This document shows positions 18,565 through 52,742 of a stretch of DNA of 54,943 nt, in pieces. The stretch is from a virus (Duplodnaviria; Caudoviricetes), in IMG/VR virus record IMGVR_UViG_3300037755_000870, positions 1 through 54,943 of that record, one strand, 5' to 3'. The position numbers and the translations under genes are program-made. The stretch's first letter is position 1. Every line of letters starts with the position of its first letter. The notes under the pieces were generated by a model. It was not told the origin of the DNA and searched no databases. It worked only from the letters and a program-made list of their open reading frames with translations.

Positions 18565-18712
18565 CTGTCTCGACGGCGCCGCTGGCGGAGCGGCGTCTAC
18601 GTCGAGCGTTCCTGTCGCCGGCGGCGAGCGGCGAGCACCCGCTGACGTCGACGGTACGCCTTCCGGCTGGCGGCGCGATGTTTCACGAGTGACACTCGCC
18701 GGTCCTGCGCCG

Positions 18713-19781: not shown

Positions 19782-20977
19782 GACCGGCTCCCGGCTGCGG
19801 CGAGGTCGAGCGCGGCGATCGCCTGCGCCTCGATCTCCATCGCGTCGTCGGCGTCCTCGACGGTCTGAGCGTACGACGTGACCGCGTTCAGGACGCCGCC
19901 GGCCGTCATCTGCCCGCCGCGGACGAAGTGGTCGAGGATCCCGTCGATCCGGTCCTGACCGAACCGGAGCCGCTTCCCGATCGTCTCGATCGCCTTCGCC
20001 GGCTGGTCGACGACCGCCGTCGCCTGCGCCTCGATGATCTGGACTGCCCGCTTGACGTACTCGGCGTCGAGGAACTGCGCGACCGCGTCCCGTGCCTGCG
20101 AGGCGACCAGGTCGAGATTCTTCCTCTGCGTCTCGTCGCTCCACTGGATGACGCCGTCGCCGAGCTTGCCGCCGAGATGGACGTTCCGCATCGCGTCGCG
20201 GGTGATCGTCATGCCGTTGTCGCAGACTTCGGCGATGATCCGCGGCGTGATCGAGAACGCGCCGTCGCCGACCTCGGAGTTGGCGATCACGAACCCGGCG
20301 AACACGACGGGGTTCTCGTCGCCGGAGTTGCCGGAGAACGGCGACCGGTAGCCGGCGAGGAGCGTCGGCGCGAGCGCCTGGACCGCGGGCGCCTTGATCC
20401 GGACGTACATGCGTCGTTCGGTCAGGTCGCAGCCGTCGATCTCGACCTCGACGCCGGCCTCGCGGACGCCTTCGAGCGCCGCCGTGAGGACGTCGAGGTT
20501 GTCGAAGATCCGATACTGATTCGAGAGGAACGCGCGCGCGACGCCGTCGCCTCCGTCGTCGCCTCGGAACGTCCGGAGCAGGAACGACCGCGGGTCCGGC
20601 TCGCGCAGGACGGTCGTGATCGGACCGGCGGCGTCGCGGCCGGCGACCTTGCGCTTGCCGTGGAGCCAGCCGTTGACGTTCGAGTCGTACAGGTCCGGCG
20701 CGGCCTCGCGGAGCCGGCGCAGGTAGGCGAGCGGAACGCCGAGCTTCGAAGCGATCCCCTCGTCGCAGACCCGCGTCGGGCGATAGGTGCCGTTCGGATC
20801 CGTGACGCCGTCGTCCTCGATGACCTGGTCGGCGCCGGCGATCACGAGGTTGGCGCCGTAGGAGCGGACCTGTTCGGCGGGGACGATCATGTCGATCTTG
20901 CGGCCGTGCTGGTCCTGGAGGAGCGAGGCGAGATCCTCGATCGTCGCGTTCCTCGTCGTCGTGGTGAGCGTGCTCAT
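19778..20977 (-). CDS. DUF932-like protein, 399 aa
   Basis: RAFLSNQY, NSEVGDGA, VCDNGM, HLG motifs; CCCATCCCAAGGAG RBS. Confidence 0.75.
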   Translation of the reverse strand: MSTLTTTTRNATIEDLASLLQDQHGRKIDMIVPAEQVRSYGANLVIAGADQVIEDDGVTDPNGTYRPTRVCDEGIASKLGVPLAYLRRLREAAPDLYDSNVNGWLHGKRKVAGRDAAGPITTVLREPDPRSFLLRTFRGDDGGDGVARAFLSNQYRIFDNLDVLTAALEGVREAGVEVEIDGCDLTERRMYVRIKAPAVQALAPTLLAGYRSPFSGNSGDENPVVFAGFVIANSEVGDGAFSITPRIIAEVCDNGMTITRDAMRNVHLGGKLGDGVIQWSDETQRKNLDLVASQARDAVAQFLDAEYVKRAVQIIEAQATAVVDQPAKAIETIGKRLRFGQDRIDGILDHFVRGGQMTAGGVLNAVTSYAQTVEDADDAMEIEAQAIAALDLAAAGSRS

Positions 20978-21098
20978 GGTCTGTTCTCCTTGGGATGGGT
21001 CTGGTTGGGTTCGAGAGTACGGGCGGGGTCTGACAGCGCCTGGATCCGCTCGCGGATCGCGGGCGGGACGAGCGGGTTCAGTCGGTAGGTGACGACGA

Positions 21099-21536
21099 TC
21101 ACCAGGTCTCGCAGGAGCCGGCGTCGGTCGCGTGGTCGATGCAGCAGCCGTCGGTCGACCGCTGGCAGGACTCGTCCTCGGCGCGGTCCGAGGCGATCGA
21201 GCGGAGCGCCGGCGTCGACGGCCGCGAGTCCGGAGCGCCGACGATCGGCGAGCGGATCTCGGCGGCGATCAGGAAGCAGCCTCGCTCTGGCTCCTCGACG
21301 TGCCGGTACGCCTCGACCTCGTAGTCGTAGAACGCCGGCCGGCCGCAGTCGTTGCACTCCTCGACGTCGTCCTCGACGATCTCCGGCGCCGTCCTGGCCT
21401 TGCTCTCGTAGCGAGCGGCCTGGGTCAGATCGCCGGCTCGGCGAGCGATCTCCGCCTTGACGCGGTACCCCTCGGCGGTTACCGGCCGGGGGTTGAGGGG
21501 GCCGTACGCCGACTTCGTCGTCGTGATCGTGCTCAT
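21099..21536 (-). CDS. Hypothetical Cys-containing protein
   Basis: ATG after CCCAAGGAG and motif 21576-21591. Confidence 0.7.
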   Translation of the reverse strand: MSTITTTKSAYGPLNPRPVTAEGYRVKAEIARRAGDLTQAARYESKARTAPEIVEDDVEECNDCGRPAFYDYEVEAYRHVEEPERGCFLIAAEIRSPIVGAPDSRPSTPALRSIASDRAEDESCQRSTDGCCIDHATDAGSCETW

Positions 21537-21575
21537 GGTTGCGCTCCTTGGGAAAGGGGTCTCGGTACGCCGCAA

Positions 21576-21591
21576 CCTTAGCGCGGTTAGG
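21576..21591 (-). promoter_or_regulatory. Motif copy with TAAGGT -10
   Basis: CCTTAGCGCGGTTAGG; supplies the TAA stop of the upstream mom-like gene. Confidence 0.8.
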
Positions 21592-22294
21592 AACCTCGCG
21601 CCGTGTTCGAGCGGTCGGAGGGAGTCGAACCCACACCTCCGGCGTGGGACGCCGGCGTCTCCCCGTCGAGACCTCGACCGCGGGGTACCGGATACGGTAG
21701 CGCCAGAGGAGCGAGCCGGCGGCGCATGGCTCGATCGAGCGGGTACAGGTACCGGTACTTCCCCGGCCGGCGCCGGAACGGGACCGTCGGACCGCCTGGA
21801 TTCTCCGGGAGGTTCTTCCCGTTGAACCCTTTCGCTCGGAGGTCGTACCAAACGCCCTTCTTGTGGCGCCAGCGACCGCCGACGAAATACTCGTCGACGT
21901 CGTCGCTCTGTCCGGTGTAGATCCAGTTTCCGGCCTGGTAGATCCCGCCGTGATGTCCTCGGGTCGGATCGGCGAACGAGACGACGAGGCGAAGCTCCGG
22001 CGACTGCTGGCGGAGGAGCCGGAGTGCGCCGGCGACCGCCTGCGAGACCGGCGCCTCGTGGGAGCGCATGGCGATCCGGGTGAGTTCGCAGATCTCGACG
22101 TGGTCCAGGTCGTAGGCGGAGCCGAGCCACGGCGACGCGCCTCGGGAGAACAGGATCGCTCCGACGAACTCGCCGGCCTCCCATACGCCGACCTTGACGA
22201 GCTTCCCGGTCGGGAGGCAGCCGGAGTAGTGCCAGCGTTCGACCGCGAACCGGGCGGCGTCGTGTCCGCAGAACTCGACGACGAGGTCGGTCAC
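21587..22294 (-). CDS. mom: Mom-like GNAT DNA adenine modification protein, copy 2
   Basis: WHYS, VGAILF, ELTR, VSFADP..GHHGGIYQAGNWIYTG, PGKYRYLYPL motifs; GTG start overlaps stop of copy 1. Confidence 0.8.
   Translation of the reverse strand: MTDLVVEFCGHDAARFAVERWHYSGCLPTGKLVKVGVWEAGEFVGAILFSRGASPWLGSAYDLDHVEICELTRIAMRSHEAPVSQAVAGALRLLRQQSPELRLVVSFADPTRGHHGGIYQAGNWIYTGQSDDVDEYFVGGRWRHKKGVWYDLRAKGFNGKNLPENPGGPTVPFRRRPGKYRYLYPLDRAMRRRLAPLALPYPVPRGRGLDGETPASHAGGVGSTPSDRSNTARGS
21610..21681 (-). tRNA. Atypical tRNA-Gly(CCC)-like gene within the 3' end of mom copy 2
   Basis: GCGGTCG/CGACCGC acceptor stem (7/7 pairs), GTCT/AGAC D-stem, CCGGC/GCCGG anticodon stem with loop GT-CCC-AC, TTCGACT T-loop, discriminator U; no encoded CCA. 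Confidence 0.8.
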
Positions 22295-22923
22295 CGCGGG
22301 TACTCGACTCGGAGTGTCTCGACGCGCCGGCGGACCGGTCGATCGAGCGGGAGGACGTACCGGTGCTTGCCTGGCCGGTCCCGGCGCGGCAGCGTCGCCT
22401 TCTCGTCCGGCGTGAGGCGGCTCGGCGCGTCTCGGCCGGCGCCGTTGAATCCGGTCCCGTAGTCGGAGAGTTGCCGATCGGACCACCAGCGGCCGCGGTA
22501 GTAGACCTCCGAGGAGCCGCCCGACTGGCCCGTGTAGATCCAGTTCATCGCCTGGTACAGCACGCCGGTGTGGCCGGCCGCGGGATCGGCGAACGAGATC
22601 AGGAGCCGGAGTCCGGGGTTCGCTCGGCGGAGGAGACGGACCGCGGCGGCGACGATCGTCGAGGTCGGATGCTCGTGCTCGTCGAGAGCGACGCGCGCAA
22701 GCTCGGCGACCTCGGTCCGGTCGAGGTCGAACCGCGAGTGCAGGTTCGCCGCCAGACCAGGGGTGAACACGACGGCGCCGACGAACCGTCCGGCCTCCCA
22801 TGCCCCGAACCGGACCATCTTCGCGTGCCCGTCCATCGGGAGCTTCCCGGTGTAGTGCCAGCGGCGAGCGGCGTACGTCGCTGCTGCCTGCTGGTCGCAG
22901 TAGTCGACCAGGAGGTCGGTCAA
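22291..22923 (-). CDS. mom: Mom-like GNAT DNA adenine modification protein, copy 1
   Basis: WHYT, VGAVVF, ELAR, ISFADPAAGHTGVLYQAMNWIYTG, PGKHRYVLPL; TTG start overlaps the ParB-like stop. Confidence 0.8.
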   Translation of the reverse strand: MTDLLVDYCDQQAAATYAARRWHYTGKLPMDGHAKMVRFGAWEAGRFVGAVVFTPGLAANLHSRFDLDRTEVAELARVALDEHEHPTSTIVAAAVRLLRRANPGLRLLISFADPAAGHTGVLYQAMNWIYTGQSGGSSEVYYRGRWWSDRQLSDYGTGFNGAGRDAPSRLTPDEKATLPRRDRPGKHRYVLPLDRPVRRRVETLRVEYPR

Positions 22924-23477
22924 CGCGGGACCCACTGGTGGCCGCAGGACGGACACTGGACGGGGTTCCGTTCGTCGAGGCGAGGCTGCGTCTCCGGCGG
23001 TACCGGATCGAAGTCCGGGACCTGGAGTTCGGCGAGGATCGTGTCGAGGTCGTCGTTGTCGTACCCGACGGCGCCGTCCAGGCGGTCGTTCTTCCGGAGG
23101 TCGTCGAGCATCGCGCCGAGTTCGTCCATCCGCCAGCCGCCGCGTTCGCCGAGCCGGTTCACTGCGATGAGCGCGGCCTTCGCCTCGTCGTCGTCCTCGG
23201 ATGCCCAGCCGCAGACGACCGGGACCCGCCAGGTTCCGTCCTCGTCGACGACGACGCCGTCCGGGGGTTCCTCGCCGGCCTCTCGTGCCGTCCGGTACTG
23301 CTCGGTTCGGCCGTGGCCGGAGATCAGTCGGCCGGTCCGGTCGTCGCGGGTGATGATCTCGATCGTGCCGAAGCGGCGGAGCGAGGCGGCGATCCCGGCC
23401 TCGTCGTGGTCCTTCGGGTTCTGCTCTGCTCCGACGATCTCGTCGAGAGGCAGGTACTCGATATGGCGCTCGGTCAT
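22920..23477 (-). CDS. ParB-N-like domain protein with C-terminal zinc ribbon
   Basis: NPKDH...SLRRFG...LISGHGR...CPSCGHQW; leaderless TACGCT-N6-ATG. Confidence 0.8.
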   Translation of the reverse strand: MTERHIEYLPLDEIVGAEQNPKDHDEAGIAASLRRFGTIEIITRDDRTGRLISGHGRTEQYRTAREAGEEPPDGVVVDEDGTWRVPVVCGWASEDDDEAKAALIAVNRLGERGGWRMDELGAMLDDLRKNDRLDGAVGYDNDDLDTILAELQVPDFDPVPPETQPRLDERNPVQCPSCGHQWVPR

Positions 23478-23530
23478 GGCCGGAGCGTAGTGCGCTCAGG
23501 CTCTGTCAACAGGTGGGGAGAACCTGGGGA

Positions 23531-23749
23531 TCATCGGACCTCGAACTCGCCGGCGTGGTGGCGAGATCCGTGGGCGAACGCGGCGTCGAGCGCGGTCCGC
23601 TTGTTCGCTGTCGAGTGCCAGCCGCGGCCGTCGAGCCAGCCGAGAGCGAGGTCGCGTTTCGTCGGGATCGTGACGTTCCCGCACGCCGAGCATTCGACGC
23701 GGTGGGTGGCGCGCCGACCCGCGAGCGTCCGGACTCGGACCTCGATCAC
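23531..23749 (-). CDS. Hypothetical protein
   Basis: Coupled ORF with CxxC. Confidence 0.5.
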   Translation of the reverse strand: MIEVRVRTLAGRRATHRVECSACGNVTIPTKRDLALGWLDGRGWHSTANKRTALDAAFAHGSRHHAGEFEVR

Positions 23750-50042: not shown

Positions 50043-51081
50043 GATCGGCCGCGTCGGAGAGCGCGGCTCTGTACGAGCCGGAGAGCGCCGCCCAGTCCTG
50101 GTGCCGCCGGAACTCCTCGACCTCTGCGAGAGCGCCCAGGAGCCGGTCCTCGTCGTCCGCTAGGTCGTCGAGCGTGGCCGCGAGGCGCCGCGGGTCGGTC
50201 TGAGCGAGCGGGATCTCCCCGCCGGGAGTCCGGAGCGTGCCTCGGAACGTCGCCGGCGTGGTCACGGCGGGCCAGTCCTCGTTCGGCGAGACCGCCGGCA
50301 GGACCGGGACGACGCCGGCGGCGATCGCCTCCAGGACCGGCAGGCAGAGTCCACCGTACCGACGGGGTAGGACGAGAACGTCGGCGCCGGCGTAGAGATC
50401 CCAGCGGTCCGCGCGGCCTCCCAGGTGGCGTTCGACCGGGACCCGCGAGGAGCGGACCGCCGGGAGCCGCGGGTCCTGGCACTCCAGGCGGAACCGGAGC
50501 CGATCGGACCGCAGATACCGCAAGGTCTGGAACACGGTCGTCGTCCCGTTCCGGTCCCCGGCCGCGCGATGTCCCGCGACGTGCAGAGCGGTCAGCGGAC
50601 CGTCGTCCTCGCGGGGGATCTCCGGCGCCGTCGGGACCGGTACCGGGACGATCTCGCACTCCGAGGGAAGCTCGTCCGCCCGCCACTTCGTCGGCAGCCA
50701 CCAGACCGTCGGCCGAGGGAGCGTCGGGTCGTCCCAGCGCCAGAACTCCGGATTCGCATGGACCACGGTCGCGACGCCGGCTTGCTCGGCGAGCGTGAAC
50801 AGCCGGAAGTCGTACGGCGTCTCGACCATGTAGACGACGTCGAGTCCGTCGAGGAACTCCTCCATGTGGTCGACCGGCAGCGTCCCGGTCCGGGGGTCGA
50901 ACGTGACGGTCTCGGCGTCGGGGTACCGATCGAACCGCGGCATGAACCCCTTGCGCTCCGCTCCCGGCTCTCGGACCACGAGGATCCGTTCGACCTCCAG
51001 GTTCCGGGCGAACTCCCAGGTCTGGATCCCGATCCCTCGGTCGTCCGCTCGTGCCAGCAGCCCTACGCGTAGGTGTCCCAC
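50029..51081 (-). CDS. Glycosyltransferase (GT4-like GT-B fold), 350 aa
   Basis: ADVLVLPRRYGGLCLPVLEAIAAGVVPV; GTG at 51081 overlapping the upstream gene end. Confidence 0.8.
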   Translation of the reverse strand: MGHLRVGLLARADDRGIGIQTWEFARNLEVERILVVREPGAERKGFMPRFDRYPDAETVTFDPRTGTLPVDHMEEFLDGLDVVYMVETPYDFRLFTLAEQAGVATVVHANPEFWRWDDPTLPRPTVWWLPTKWRADELPSECEIVPVPVPTAPEIPREDDGPLTALHVAGHRAAGDRNGTTTVFQTLRYLRSDRLRFRLECQDPRLPAVRSSRVPVERHLGGRADRWDLYAGADVLVLPRRYGGLCLPVLEAIAAGVVPVLPAVSPNEDWPAVTTPATFRGTLRTPGGEIPLAQTDPRRLAATLDDLADDEDRLLGALAEVEEFRRHQDWAALSGSYRAALSDAADRARR

Positions 51082-52742
51082 CAGATCATCCCTCCGTTGC
51101 TCGGTCGGCCCAGGATCCGAACGTGTCCGTGCTCGGCCAGGACCTCGACCATGTTCCGCCATTCCCAGTCGCAGAGCGCGGACTCGGCGCCGGTCTCCGT
51201 GCCGTGGAACTCCAGGACGATCCGGTCGATCCGCTCCCAGGTCTCCTCGCTCGCCGAGCAGAGGATCGCGGCCTCCGCTCCTTCGACGTCGATCTTCATC
51301 ACGCCGACGTGGCCGGCACGGCGGACGACCTCGTCGAGACCGACCGCCGGGACCGTGACGCCGGCGTCCTCGACTGCTTCGTCGATCGTGTACGAGCCGC
51401 CCTCGCCTCCTGGCTCGCCGGCGACGAACGTGGTCGTCGGCGCCGTCCCGTCCGTGACGGCCTCGCAGGAGAGGAGAACCTGCTCGACGAGGTCGTTCCG
51501 TTTGATGTTCGCCGCCAAGGTCTGCGCGTTGTCCCAGCCAGGCTCGTAGGCGTGGACCGCGTTCGCGCCGGCGAGCGCCGCGAAGATCGAGAACGCCCCG
51601 ACGTTGGCTCCGAGGTCGACGACGGTCTGGCCGCGGAGGTCCGCGGCGTCGAGCTTGTAGACGTTCTCGGTCCAGATCTCGTCGACGACGATCCGGTCCG
51701 ACGTGTCCGGCCGGAGGTCGAACGAGGCGACGAGCCGGTCGCGCCGGAACCGGTCCCGCGAGGACGCGACGCCGGGGAGGATGGAGGTCACGATGGTCTC
51801 GATTCTGTGCTCGTAGGTGTGGTGGGCACGGACGTGGTCGCGGCCTGCTGCGGCGATCGCTCGGCGTTCGTCCTCGTGGTCGAGGTAGTAGTCGATCAGC
51901 CGGTACAGGTCCTCTCGGTCGTCGTAGAGACGGAGATGTTCGCCGTCGACGAACAGGTCCTCGATGCCCGCGACCCGCGGGTGGAGGAGGAACCCGCCGC
52001 GGCCGAGGGTCTCCGGGATCCGGTCGGACCAGTACCGCTCGATCGGCTCGCCGTTCGTCGCCGGGACGAGGCAGGAGTCCCCGACGATGACCTTCGCGGT
52101 CCGGTACAGGTCGGCGAGCGCCTGGCCTCGGATCGCCTGCCGGCCTCGCGGCCAGATCCGGAACCGGTTCCGGTACCGCCGGCGGAGCGACGCTACGAGA
52201 TCTCGCCGGTCCGGGTACTCCGCGTGGTAGCGGGACCAGTTGCCCACGAACGCGATGTCGGCCCGGTAGGAGCGCATCTGGCGTCCCTCGCGCTGCGCCT
52301 CGACCGCGGAGATCGCCGGCGGCATCCACCGGTGGTCGATCCGCCGGTCGGCCCACTCCTCCTCGTGTCCGCCGTCCGCGGTGAACAGGTGGTCGACCAT
52401 GAAGAACGGTTCGTCGTCGACCTGGTGTTGCCGGTCGAGACCGAACCAGCGGTCCAGGTGCAGCCCGACCGTCGGTACGCCGGCGCCGCGGCAGCGGTCG
52501 AGCATCGCGGTCTGCGCCGCCCAGGCGTCCTCGACGGTCCAGCCGGCGACGACGTTCGGCCAGTCCCAACCGGTCCGGGTCCAGAGCAGCAGGTCGAGTC
52601 CGGCGGGGTCGAGGTCCCATGCCTCGCGGGTGTTCTCCTGGATCCGGCGGACCTCGTAGCCGATCCCCTCGGCGTCCGTGGCGACGTGGTTCTCCGTCGA
52701 GTGCGCCGGCCCGAAGTTGCCGATGTAGCCGATCGTGATCAT
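51063..52742 (-). CDS. CgeB-like glycosyltransferase fused to FkbM-family methyltransferase
   Basis: DIAFVG, YWSDRIPETLGRGGFLL, HTYEHR; then VVDLGANVG, YEP, MKIDVEGAE, LEFH. Confidence 0.85.
   Translation of the reverse strand: MITIGYIGNFGPAHSTENHVATDAEGIGYEVRRIQENTREAWDLDPAGLDLLLWTRTGWDWPNVVAGWTVEDAWAAQTAMLDRCRGAGVPTVGLHLDRWFGLDRQHQVDDEPFFMVDHLFTADGGHEEEWADRRIDHRWMPPAISAVEAQREGRQMRSYRADIAFVGNWSRYHAEYPDRRDLVASLRRRYRNRFRIWPRGRQAIRGQALADLYRTAKVIVGDSCLVPATNGEPIERYWSDRIPETLGRGGFLLHPRVAGIEDLFVDGEHLRLYDDREDLYRLIDYYLDHEDERRAIAAAGRDHVRAHHTYEHRIETIVTSILPGVASSRDRFRRDRLVASFDLRPDTSDRIVVDEIWTENVYKLDAADLRGQTVVDLGANVGAFSIFAALAGANAVHAYEPGWDNAQTLAANIKRNDLVEQVLLSCEAVTDGTAPTTTFVAGEPGGEGGSYTIDEAVEDAGVTVPAVGLDEVVRRAGHVGVMKIDVEGAEAAILCSASEETWERIDRIVLEFHGTETGAESALCDWEWRNMVEVLAEHGHVRILGRPSNGGMIWWDTYA

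Follow-up and report, generated by a model that had tools for sequence, protein, structure and literature searches.

The window analysed here is the whole 54,943-nt stretch of IMG/VR record IMGVR_UViG_3300037755_000870, a complete virus record with terminal repeats from a tailed phage of about 70% G+C, in which nearly all genes are on the minus strand. In the middle of this genome a three-gene run encoding a ParB-like protein and two relatives of the phage Mu protein Mom, here called Mom1 and Mom2, has as its last element a glycine tRNA-like RNA. The nature of this RNA is the subject of this report, and the features of the locus are as follows.

22920 to 23477, minus strand: ParB-like gene, directly upstream of Mom1 (phrog_620, E 3e-26)
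22291 to 22956, minus strand: open reading frame (ORF) of Mom1, 221 amino acids, a diverged paralog (Pfam PF25680, E 3.4e-34)
21587 to 22294, minus strand: ORF of Mom2, 235 amino acids, GTG start (Pfam PF25680, E 4.6e-42; PDB 8bv8, Mu Mom, E 2.6e-11)
21609 to 21681, minus strand: tRNA-Gly(CCC)-like RNA, 73 nt through C74 (ARAGORN, RF00005 and the family model R1 described below)
21575 to 21591, minus strand: copy of a repeated motif, CCTAACCGCGCTAAGGT, with 17 nt between the last base of the RNA and the motif

The RNA and the mom2 gene share the same DNA. The Mom domain of Mom2 spans amino acids 4–202 (about 21689–22285), the 5′ end of the RNA lies 2 nt past the domain match with no stop codon between, and the last 33 codons of the ORF together with its TAA stop (21587–21589) run through and past the RNA, the stop lying 20 nt beyond the RNA 3′ end. 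At the other end of the gene, the GTG start of Mom2 is overlapped by the TGA stop of Mom1 (GTGA, 22291–22294), which suggests coupled translation of the two diverged paralogs. Mom1 is on a long branch in the Mom tree, and both proteins keep the equivalents of R111 and S124, residues that are essential in Mu Mom (Silva et al., Nat Commun 2026, PMC13219725). Tandem Mom copies ahead of the RNA are also present in two other viral loci, L006 and L026.

The general tRNA tools both recognise this RNA. ARAGORN makes a single tRNA call in the window, a tRNA-Gly(ccc) at 21609–21681 on the minus strand, and the only Rfam match in the whole window is that to RF00005 at 21610–21681 (minus strand; 44.3 bits against a gathering score of 29, E 3.2e-06, model positions 1–71 of 71), which places it among tRNAs by the gathering score. 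Bacterial glycyl-tRNA synthetase reads an identity set of G1-C72, C2-G71, G3-C70, U73, C35 and C36; this set is complete in the window RNA, and from these sequence features the RNA is a predicted substrate of the enzyme. Decoding tRNAs in turn have near-universal features, namely U8 pairing with A14, a pyrimidine at position 32 that makes no Watson-Crick pair with 38, U33, and a purine at 37. Compared with these the window RNA fails as a decoding-competent elongator at A8, at C14 and at G32-C38, but it does have U33 and A37. With C at position 14 and G at position 21, the RNA lacks both A14 and A21 and has a 5-bp D stem with a 6-nt D loop; the variable loop is 4 nt. G32 faces C38, and their Watson-Crick pairing extends the anticodon stem; because the retained U33 and A37 can also pair with each other, the minimum-energy fold has an anticodon arm closed to 7 pairs with a CCC triloop. 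The T stem has a U·U mismatch at 50-64, and U73 is followed by CGA, with CCA not encoded. The fold z-score is −0.67, which is uninformative for a sequence of 74% G+C. A sequence-only reading of this DNA had written out the minus strand from 21681 to 21607, exactly as we find it, and its listing of the glycine identity elements (G1-C72, C2-G71, C35/C36 and U73) and of four deviations (A8, G32-C38, the U50-U64 mismatch, and CGA for CCA) is confirmed in the sequence throughout.

The RNA belongs to a conserved RNA family that is closely associated with Mom. A search of IMG/VR with the Mom2 protein gave 317 stretches encoding relatives, of which the best 80 loci were retained, and ARAGORN reports a tRNA-Gly just 3′ of Mom in 10 of these 80. 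An RNA-only search pattern, in which A8 and Y14/R21 were fixed and the anticodon arm was left wholly unconstrained, matched 56 IMG/VR stretches containing 46 distinct sequences. Positions 34–36 are NCC in every one of these matches, though the pattern left the anticodon arm open, and a Mom domain lies within 81 nt of the RNA in 44 of the 56 stretches, with Mom directly 5′ on the same strand in 42, the RNA first in one, and a convergent arrangement in one. A covariance model, R1, was built from the 46 pattern sequences with the window left out. The window RNA matches R1 over its full length with 81.7 bits (E 2.6e-17), compared to 44.3 bits on the general tRNA model, and main-group members of the family score 70–91 bits; a second R1 match in the window at 18626–18702 (16.5 bits, E 0.094) was taken as noise. 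Across the best 80 Mom loci R1 (E ≤ 0.01) locates the RNA in 42, always on the strand of Mom, and 37 of these 42 begin within 13 nt of the end of the Mom match. Pattern matches and R1 matches together comprise 66 distinct family RNAs, 54 of them Mom-adjacent, and the window RNA has the traits of the family: A8, the 14-21 pair, the 6-nt D loop, the 32-38 pair, the R1 score and the adjacency to Mom. When the 81-nt RNA was compared with cultured phages by blastn, 354 records gave matches, none of them reaching 80% query coverage, and just T-arm-like pieces were aligned; the family is therefore not found by sequence search alone. The RF00005 score is also a poor discriminator, because the range for family RNAs (below 29 and up to 57.6 bits) overlaps that of the other phage tRNAs of the same contigs (36–72 bits).

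The pattern of conservation within the family is informative. In an alignment of 47 sequences, 97.2% of the stem cells are in standard pairs, compared to 68.8% after shuffling and 39–46% when the partners are slid, and there are 320 double-sided changes, with compensatory change in all four stems. From this alignment the structure of the family RNA is judged to be under selection, and the covariation check across homologs that the sequence-only reading had proposed thus comes out against random decay. Among the 66 family RNAs, the pairs G1-C72, C2-G71 and G3-C70 are invariant, as are C35, C36, U73 and A8, the last being fixed by the pattern that found 46 of them; C74 is present in 62. Positions 14 and 21 pair in 61 of the 66 (C-G 41, U-A 13, U-G 7), with Y14/R21 again fixed by the pattern for 46, and covariation between one base of the D loop and T-loop position 55 (G/U 36, A/G 19) favours a conserved L-shape.

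The ribosome needs U33, a 7-nt anticodon loop that stays open, a purine at position 37, and the wobble base. In the family, U33 is present in only 44 of the 66 RNAs and lost in 22, position 37 is a pyrimidine in five, and position 34 is T in 45, A in 12, C in eight and G in one. Positions 32 and 38 form a Watson-Crick pair in 61 of the 66, using four pair types in a region that the search pattern left free; in the 47-sequence alignment the pairs are C-G 16, A-U 15, G-C 7, U-A 5, G-U or U-G 2, and other 2. Read across the family, the positions recognised by the synthetase never vary, and those needed by the ribosome are free or rebuilt. Two of the deviations in the window RNA do not carry the weight that the sequence-only reading gave them. 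Its EF-Tu argument was based on the U50-U64 mismatch, which is found in one of the 66 family RNAs, the window's own; the argument thus rests on a trait of this lineage only. A close relative of the window RNA on one contig (depth 6.8) of a soil metagenome run, X3, has C-G at 50-64 and A-U rather than G-C at the next pair, giving the family-consensus T stem; its anticodon arm is identical to that of the window, its other four substitutions are in loops, and no pair is broken. Two further runs, X2 and X4, had no coverage of the RNA. The CGA that had been taken as a sign of unfitness is ordinary, since 41 of the 66 family RNAs lack an encoded CCA (25 have it), and CGA as in the window occurs in six.

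The overlap between the Mom ORF and the RNA is also a property of the family. Among 47 distinct RNAs for which Mom ends no more than 15 nt upstream, the Mom frame stops before the RNA in none, inside it in eight, and beyond it on the 3′ side in 39. That no stop codon lies ahead of the RNA looks to have been selected. Two Mom reading phases through the RNA are used, 23 and 23 times among the 47, and because they are about equally used the peptide tail is not what is conserved. In the X3 relative one nucleotide is missing immediately 5′ of the RNA and one is added within the D loop, and between these two changes the Mom reading phase is shifted. A Mom tree of 58 rows was constructed from 56 distinct near-full-length segments of the 80 loci plus Mom1 and Mom2, leaving out 24 loci that were duplicates, short or interrupted. 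RNA-bearing and RNA-free Moms are intermixed in it, with 12 label changes, at least nine of which are forced by well-supported branches; Mom2 falls in a supported clade with L001–L003, all of which are RNA-bearing.

The biochemistry of Mu Mom provides a context for these observations. Mu Mom moves glycine from Gly-tRNAGly to the N6 of adenine in duplex DNA, giving an adduct that rearranges into N6-carbamoylmethyl-adenine; each of the three Escherichia coli isoacceptors works and a mischarged Gly-tRNAAla fails (PMC13219725). The window proteins belong to the same family (PF25680), and the same chemistry is presumed here, that is, glycyl transfer from tRNAGly to adenine N6 followed by rearrangement. 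Mu differs in having a single mom gene and no adjoining tRNA-like RNA (there is no R1 match in its locus, L136), and in using any host isoacceptor, whereas the window has two Mom paralogs followed by its own rebuilt tRNA-Gly inside an ORF. A second precedent is in Staphylococcus aureus, in which non-proteogenic tRNAGly species escape EF-Tu, which sequesters the proteogenic ones, and are preferred by FmhB; this lineage is described as confined to staphylococci (Rietmeyer et al., NAR 2021, PMC7826273). These tRNAs are charged by the normal synthetase, work poorly with EF-Tu and the ribosome, and serve FmhB, FemA and FemB, with discriminating features in the D and T arms; they are chromosomal and feed peptidoglycan synthesis, whereas the window RNA is phage-borne with DNA as the proposed target. 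The window RNA differs from them by changes of its own, which are A8, the 5-bp D stem and the 32-38 pair. The staphylococcal tRNAs reportedly keep a normal anticodon loop. The window RNA, phage-borne in a 70% G+C genome, is not a member of the staphylococcal lineage, and the resemblance is in the proposed working only.

We consider that the window RNA probably does not decode and instead serves only to donate glycine to the Mom enzymes that the phage itself encodes. It is best read as an RNA that would be charged by the host synthetase yet ignored by EF-Tu and the ribosome, for which the staphylococcal tRNAGly offer the analogy; the role as a donor for Mom is proposed because the family adjoins the genes of an enzyme that uses Gly-tRNAGly. 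A non-ribosomal glycine carrier was also the proposal of the sequence-only reading, and it gains support from the conserved family, the invariant identity positions, the relaxed decoding positions and the adjacency to Mom. The RNA would be transcribed as the tail of a ParB-like/Mom1/Mom2 unit, as its place in the observed layout suggests, and then released by host RNase P and 3′ trimming, with the host CCA-adding enzyme finishing the 3′ end. Host glycyl-tRNA synthetase could charge it by way of G1-C72, C2-G71, G3-C70, U73, C35 and C36, and the rebuilt core (A8, C14-G21) and closed anticodon loop (G32-C38) would exclude it from the EF-Tu and ribosome pool. Mom1, Mom2 or both would then use its glycine to acylate adenine N6 in phage DNA, the product presumably rearranging to N6-carbamoylmethyl-adenine as with Mu Mom and shielding the DNA from host nucleases. 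Mom1 and Mom2 would thereby obtain a glycine supply that does not compete with translation. We also speculate that, because the Mom2 ORF has no stop ahead of the RNA, excision of the RNA would strip the stop codon from the mom2 message, perhaps coupling or limiting Mom2 output.

Several observations weigh against this interpretation. First, U33 and A37 are retained in the window RNA, whose anticodon loop could open out to 7 nt, and it is the only tRNA of a genome in which GGG accounts for 270 of 1156 glycine codons (23%, in a crude set of 58 window ORFs); it may retain some decoding use. Secondly, A32-U38 and U32-A38 occur in some decoding tRNAs, so that only the G-C and C-G cases of the 32-38 pair are clearly abnormal; the G32-C38 of the window RNA is one of these. 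Thirdly, the U50·U64 mismatch may weaken this particular copy. Fourthly, a private carrier is not chemically required, since Mu Mom accepts all three host isoacceptors (PMC13219725). Lastly, the association with Mom is incomplete: 38 of the 80 Mom loci are without a family RNA in the available DNA, Mom is absent from 12 of the 56 viral pattern stretches (one of which breaks off 19 nt ahead of the RNA) and from 11 of 14 cellular ones, some of these being beside Ro60 genes, and the architecture of the RNA is not exclusive to Mom, given the copies linked to DruA, to Ro60 and in Kineococcus.

These copies away from Mom fall into several groups. Twelve of the 66 family RNAs are not Mom-adjacent; one is truncated, five are without an identifiable partner, and six are near genes of the DruA family, at the following positions.

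L086: 11248 to 11320, minus strand
L091: 11940 to 12012, minus strand
L101: 6173 to 6245
L108: 1045 to 1117
L112: 4441 to 4513
L122: 573 to 645

All six lie 48–57 nt upstream of a DruA-family gene of about 397 amino acids, on related AT-rich viral contigs of 31–34% G+C. The assignment is to PF14236 (E about 1e-25) by Pfam on two of the six, the others being 61–88% identical, and Atlas concurs. Comparison of Mom with the DruA-like protein by hhalign shows no relation (probability 0.3%), the DruA-like protein has no sequence relative in the PDB, and its AlphaFold model has a mean predicted local distance difference test score of 40.1. Transfer-messenger RNA genes or tRNA arrays are found near these six RNAs.

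In cellular genomes the pattern is rare, with just 14 stretches in genomes of 185,579 species. In three of these Mom reads through the RNA, one being a Dehalococcoides metagenome-assembled genome (MAG; L143). Seven are look-alikes in Myxococcota-type MAGs (L149, 813–884 on the minus strand; L150, 2604–2676; L141, L144, L145, L146 and L151), which have GCC at 34–36, A8 and the same D arm, in some cases a base other than U at 33 or C37, and have further tRNA-like sequences around them. The look-alikes of L149 and L150 are each followed closely by a Ro60 (TROVE+vWA) gene, an arrangement suggestive of Y-RNA-type loci. Three chromosomal copies in Kineococcus (L138, 6283–6355; L142, 144–216; L148, 6484–6556) have G32-C38 and UCC or ACC anticodons and are located between ordinary metabolic genes; Mom was not found at these loci, nor genome-wide by a weak test. 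In five cellular genomes with pattern matches the Mom family was not found by a search that was silent in its controls too and so does not speak for absence.

The most serious alternative, although an unlikely one, is that of a normal phage tRNA-Gly(CCC), adding to the capacity for GGG decoding in a phage of 70% G+C, its adjacency to Mom being merely a convenient supply of a shared substrate. The full cloverleaf recognised by ARAGORN and Rfam, the presence of U33 and A37, the use of GGG for nearly a quarter of the glycine codons in a genome with this sole tRNA, and the plain annotation of the homolog in phage Appa as tRNA-Gly(ccc) would all fit such a role. However, G32-C38 is abnormal for a decoding tRNA and U8, A14 and A21 are missing, and the departures extend through the family in the prevalence of the 32-38 pair, the loss of U33, the 12 RNAs with A34, and a position 34 that varies while C35 and C36 never do. 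Two phages moreover keep a canonical tRNA-Gly(UCC) alongside the family RNA, at loci L112 (3061–3132 and 4441–4513) and L094 (2426–2497 and 361–432, both minus strand). These canonical tRNAs have U8 and Y32/A38 and score 63.7 and 64.6 bits on RF00005, whereas the family RNAs of the same two loci score 45.8 bits and below the 29-bit threshold. Nor is it a property of independent tRNA genes that the Mom ORF should never stop before the RNA, as is the case in all 47 close-coupled examples.

That same entry of the ORF into the RNA is what would be expected if the tRNA-like structure served the mom message only in cis, marking a site for processing, stabilising the transcript or braking its translation, and if it neither received an amino acid nor donated one. 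The nearly equal use of two phases with no conserved tail peptide agrees with this, as does the tight control of Mu mom, for which the translational regulator Com is annotated. We nevertheless regard a cis element as very unlikely, more so than a decoding tRNA. C35, C36, U73 and the three acceptor pairs are invariant in all 66 RNAs, so that synthetase recognition, rather than a processing signal alone, explains them, and other layouts exist: the RNA precedes Mom in L106, converges with it in Appa, and elsewhere lies away from Mom altogether.

The origin that is least credible, and can be set aside, is that of a pseudo-tRNA in decay or of an integration-site remnant acquired from a host: the T-stem mismatch, the modest general-tRNA score of 44.3 bits and the labelling of the Dehalococcoides homolog as a pseudo-tRNA by annotation pipelines (PMC3146451) point that way, but the four stems show compensatory changes, the X3 relative repairs the mismatch and adds none, the pattern is rare in cellular genomes, and an integration-site origin was rejected on account of the terminal repeats, the mid-genome place of the RNA and the lack of an integrase among the 22 window proteins scanned.

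If the RNA is a dedicated glycine donor for Mom, a more elaborate arrangement can be envisaged, which we put forward as a tentative and rather doubtful extension. In this, the Mom clade and its RNA would constitute a private, orthogonal glycyl-transfer channel, Mom having co-evolved to recognise the altered elbow and D arm, with A8 and the 5-bp D stem, and to prefer this RNA over host tRNAGly, with EF-Tu and the ribosome ignoring the RNA. The overlap of ORF and RNA would be a built-in switch, in which release by RNase P removes the stop codon of the message and either balances enzyme and carrier or caps a toxic Mom, and the DruA-like proteins would also draw on glycyl-tRNA.

Related arrangements have been described or can be recognised elsewhere. 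In Dehalococcoides ssrA islands a conserved 76-bp tRNA-Gly-like locus is embedded in a mom homolog beside a ParB-domain gene, and the passages on this locus propose no function for it (McMurdie et al., BMC Genomics 2011, PMC3146451). As in the window, a tRNA-Gly-like cloverleaf of about 76 nt overlaps a homolog of mom preceded by a ParB-domain gene, and the Dehalococcoides MAG locus L143 has an RNA pattern match with the Mom ORF running through it; the published RNA, unlike that of the window, lies in the opening 150 bp of its annotated gene and on an integrative island (PMC3146451). Among cultured phages, the best DNA matches to the window are the Mom genes of Microbacterium phage Appa (NC_047972.1, L137) and Arthrobacter phage Sonny (NC_041933.1, L135), and both phages have the order ParB-like, Mom-like, then RNA; the ParB-like to Mom order is thus shared by the window, the two phages and the Dehalococcoides islands. 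The Appa RNA (L137, 6323–6395, minus strand) is annotated as gene 48, tRNA-Gly(ccc), scores 74.7 bits on R1 and has U32/A38, and it differs in being on the strand opposite to mom, 33 nt past it. That of Sonny (L135, 2209–2280, minus strand) has a UCC anticodon and scores 79.8 bits on R1; it is unannotated, and the annotated mom coding sequence overlaps its first 21 nt.

Our literature searches found no paper tying a phage-encoded tRNA to Mom chemistry: the RNA was described in 2011, the main parts of the Mu Mom paper (PMC13219725) do not mention phage-encoded tRNAs, and the Mom passages of a 2021 jumbo-phage survey assume a coenzyme A donor. Only in 2023–2026 was Mom shown to modify DNA with glycine from a charged tRNA, and host tRNAs were used there. 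The arrangement proposed here would pair a non-proteogenic tRNAGly with a tRNA-dependent GNAT-fold transferase, both virus-encoded and putatively directed at DNA. If many phages do bring a rebuilt, translation-blind tRNA-Gly for Mom, it would be the first aminoacyl carrier encoded by a virus for the sole purpose of DNA hypermodification. Following the staphylococcal tRNAs for cell-wall synthesis, it would be a second independent example of glycine tRNAs divided between ribosome and transferase. Such a case would also separate the tRNA features needed by glycyl-tRNA synthetase and Mom from those that only the ribosome needs. There is a consequence for annotation as well, in that ARAGORN caught under a quarter (10 of 42) of the copies that R1 found in the same 80 loci, and the copy in Sonny is both unannotated and overlapped by the mom coding sequence. 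The cultured relatives, with Microbacterium foliorum and Arthrobacter sp. as harmless hosts, make the idea directly testable.

Beyond the RNA, simple sigma-70 promoter and terminator scans of 20900–23700 found nothing and were uninformative. The near-palindromic motif CCTAACCGCGCTAAGGT and its variants are present in the window as eight strong and five weaker copies, ahead of many genes; besides the copy after the RNA there are at least 12 other sites, among them 3108, 13398, 24616, 27216 and 32713. The copy at 21575–21591 contains the TAA of Mom2 and precedes the next gene, which starts at 21536. This motif may be a promoter or operator, in which case the RNA would be the last element of the ParB-Mom1-Mom2 unit. 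Among the structural genes, 51063–52742 (minus strand) encodes a 559-amino-acid protein with a glycosyltransferase-like half (phrog_28745, E 8e-42) and a methyltransferase-like half (phrog_8156, E 2e-17).

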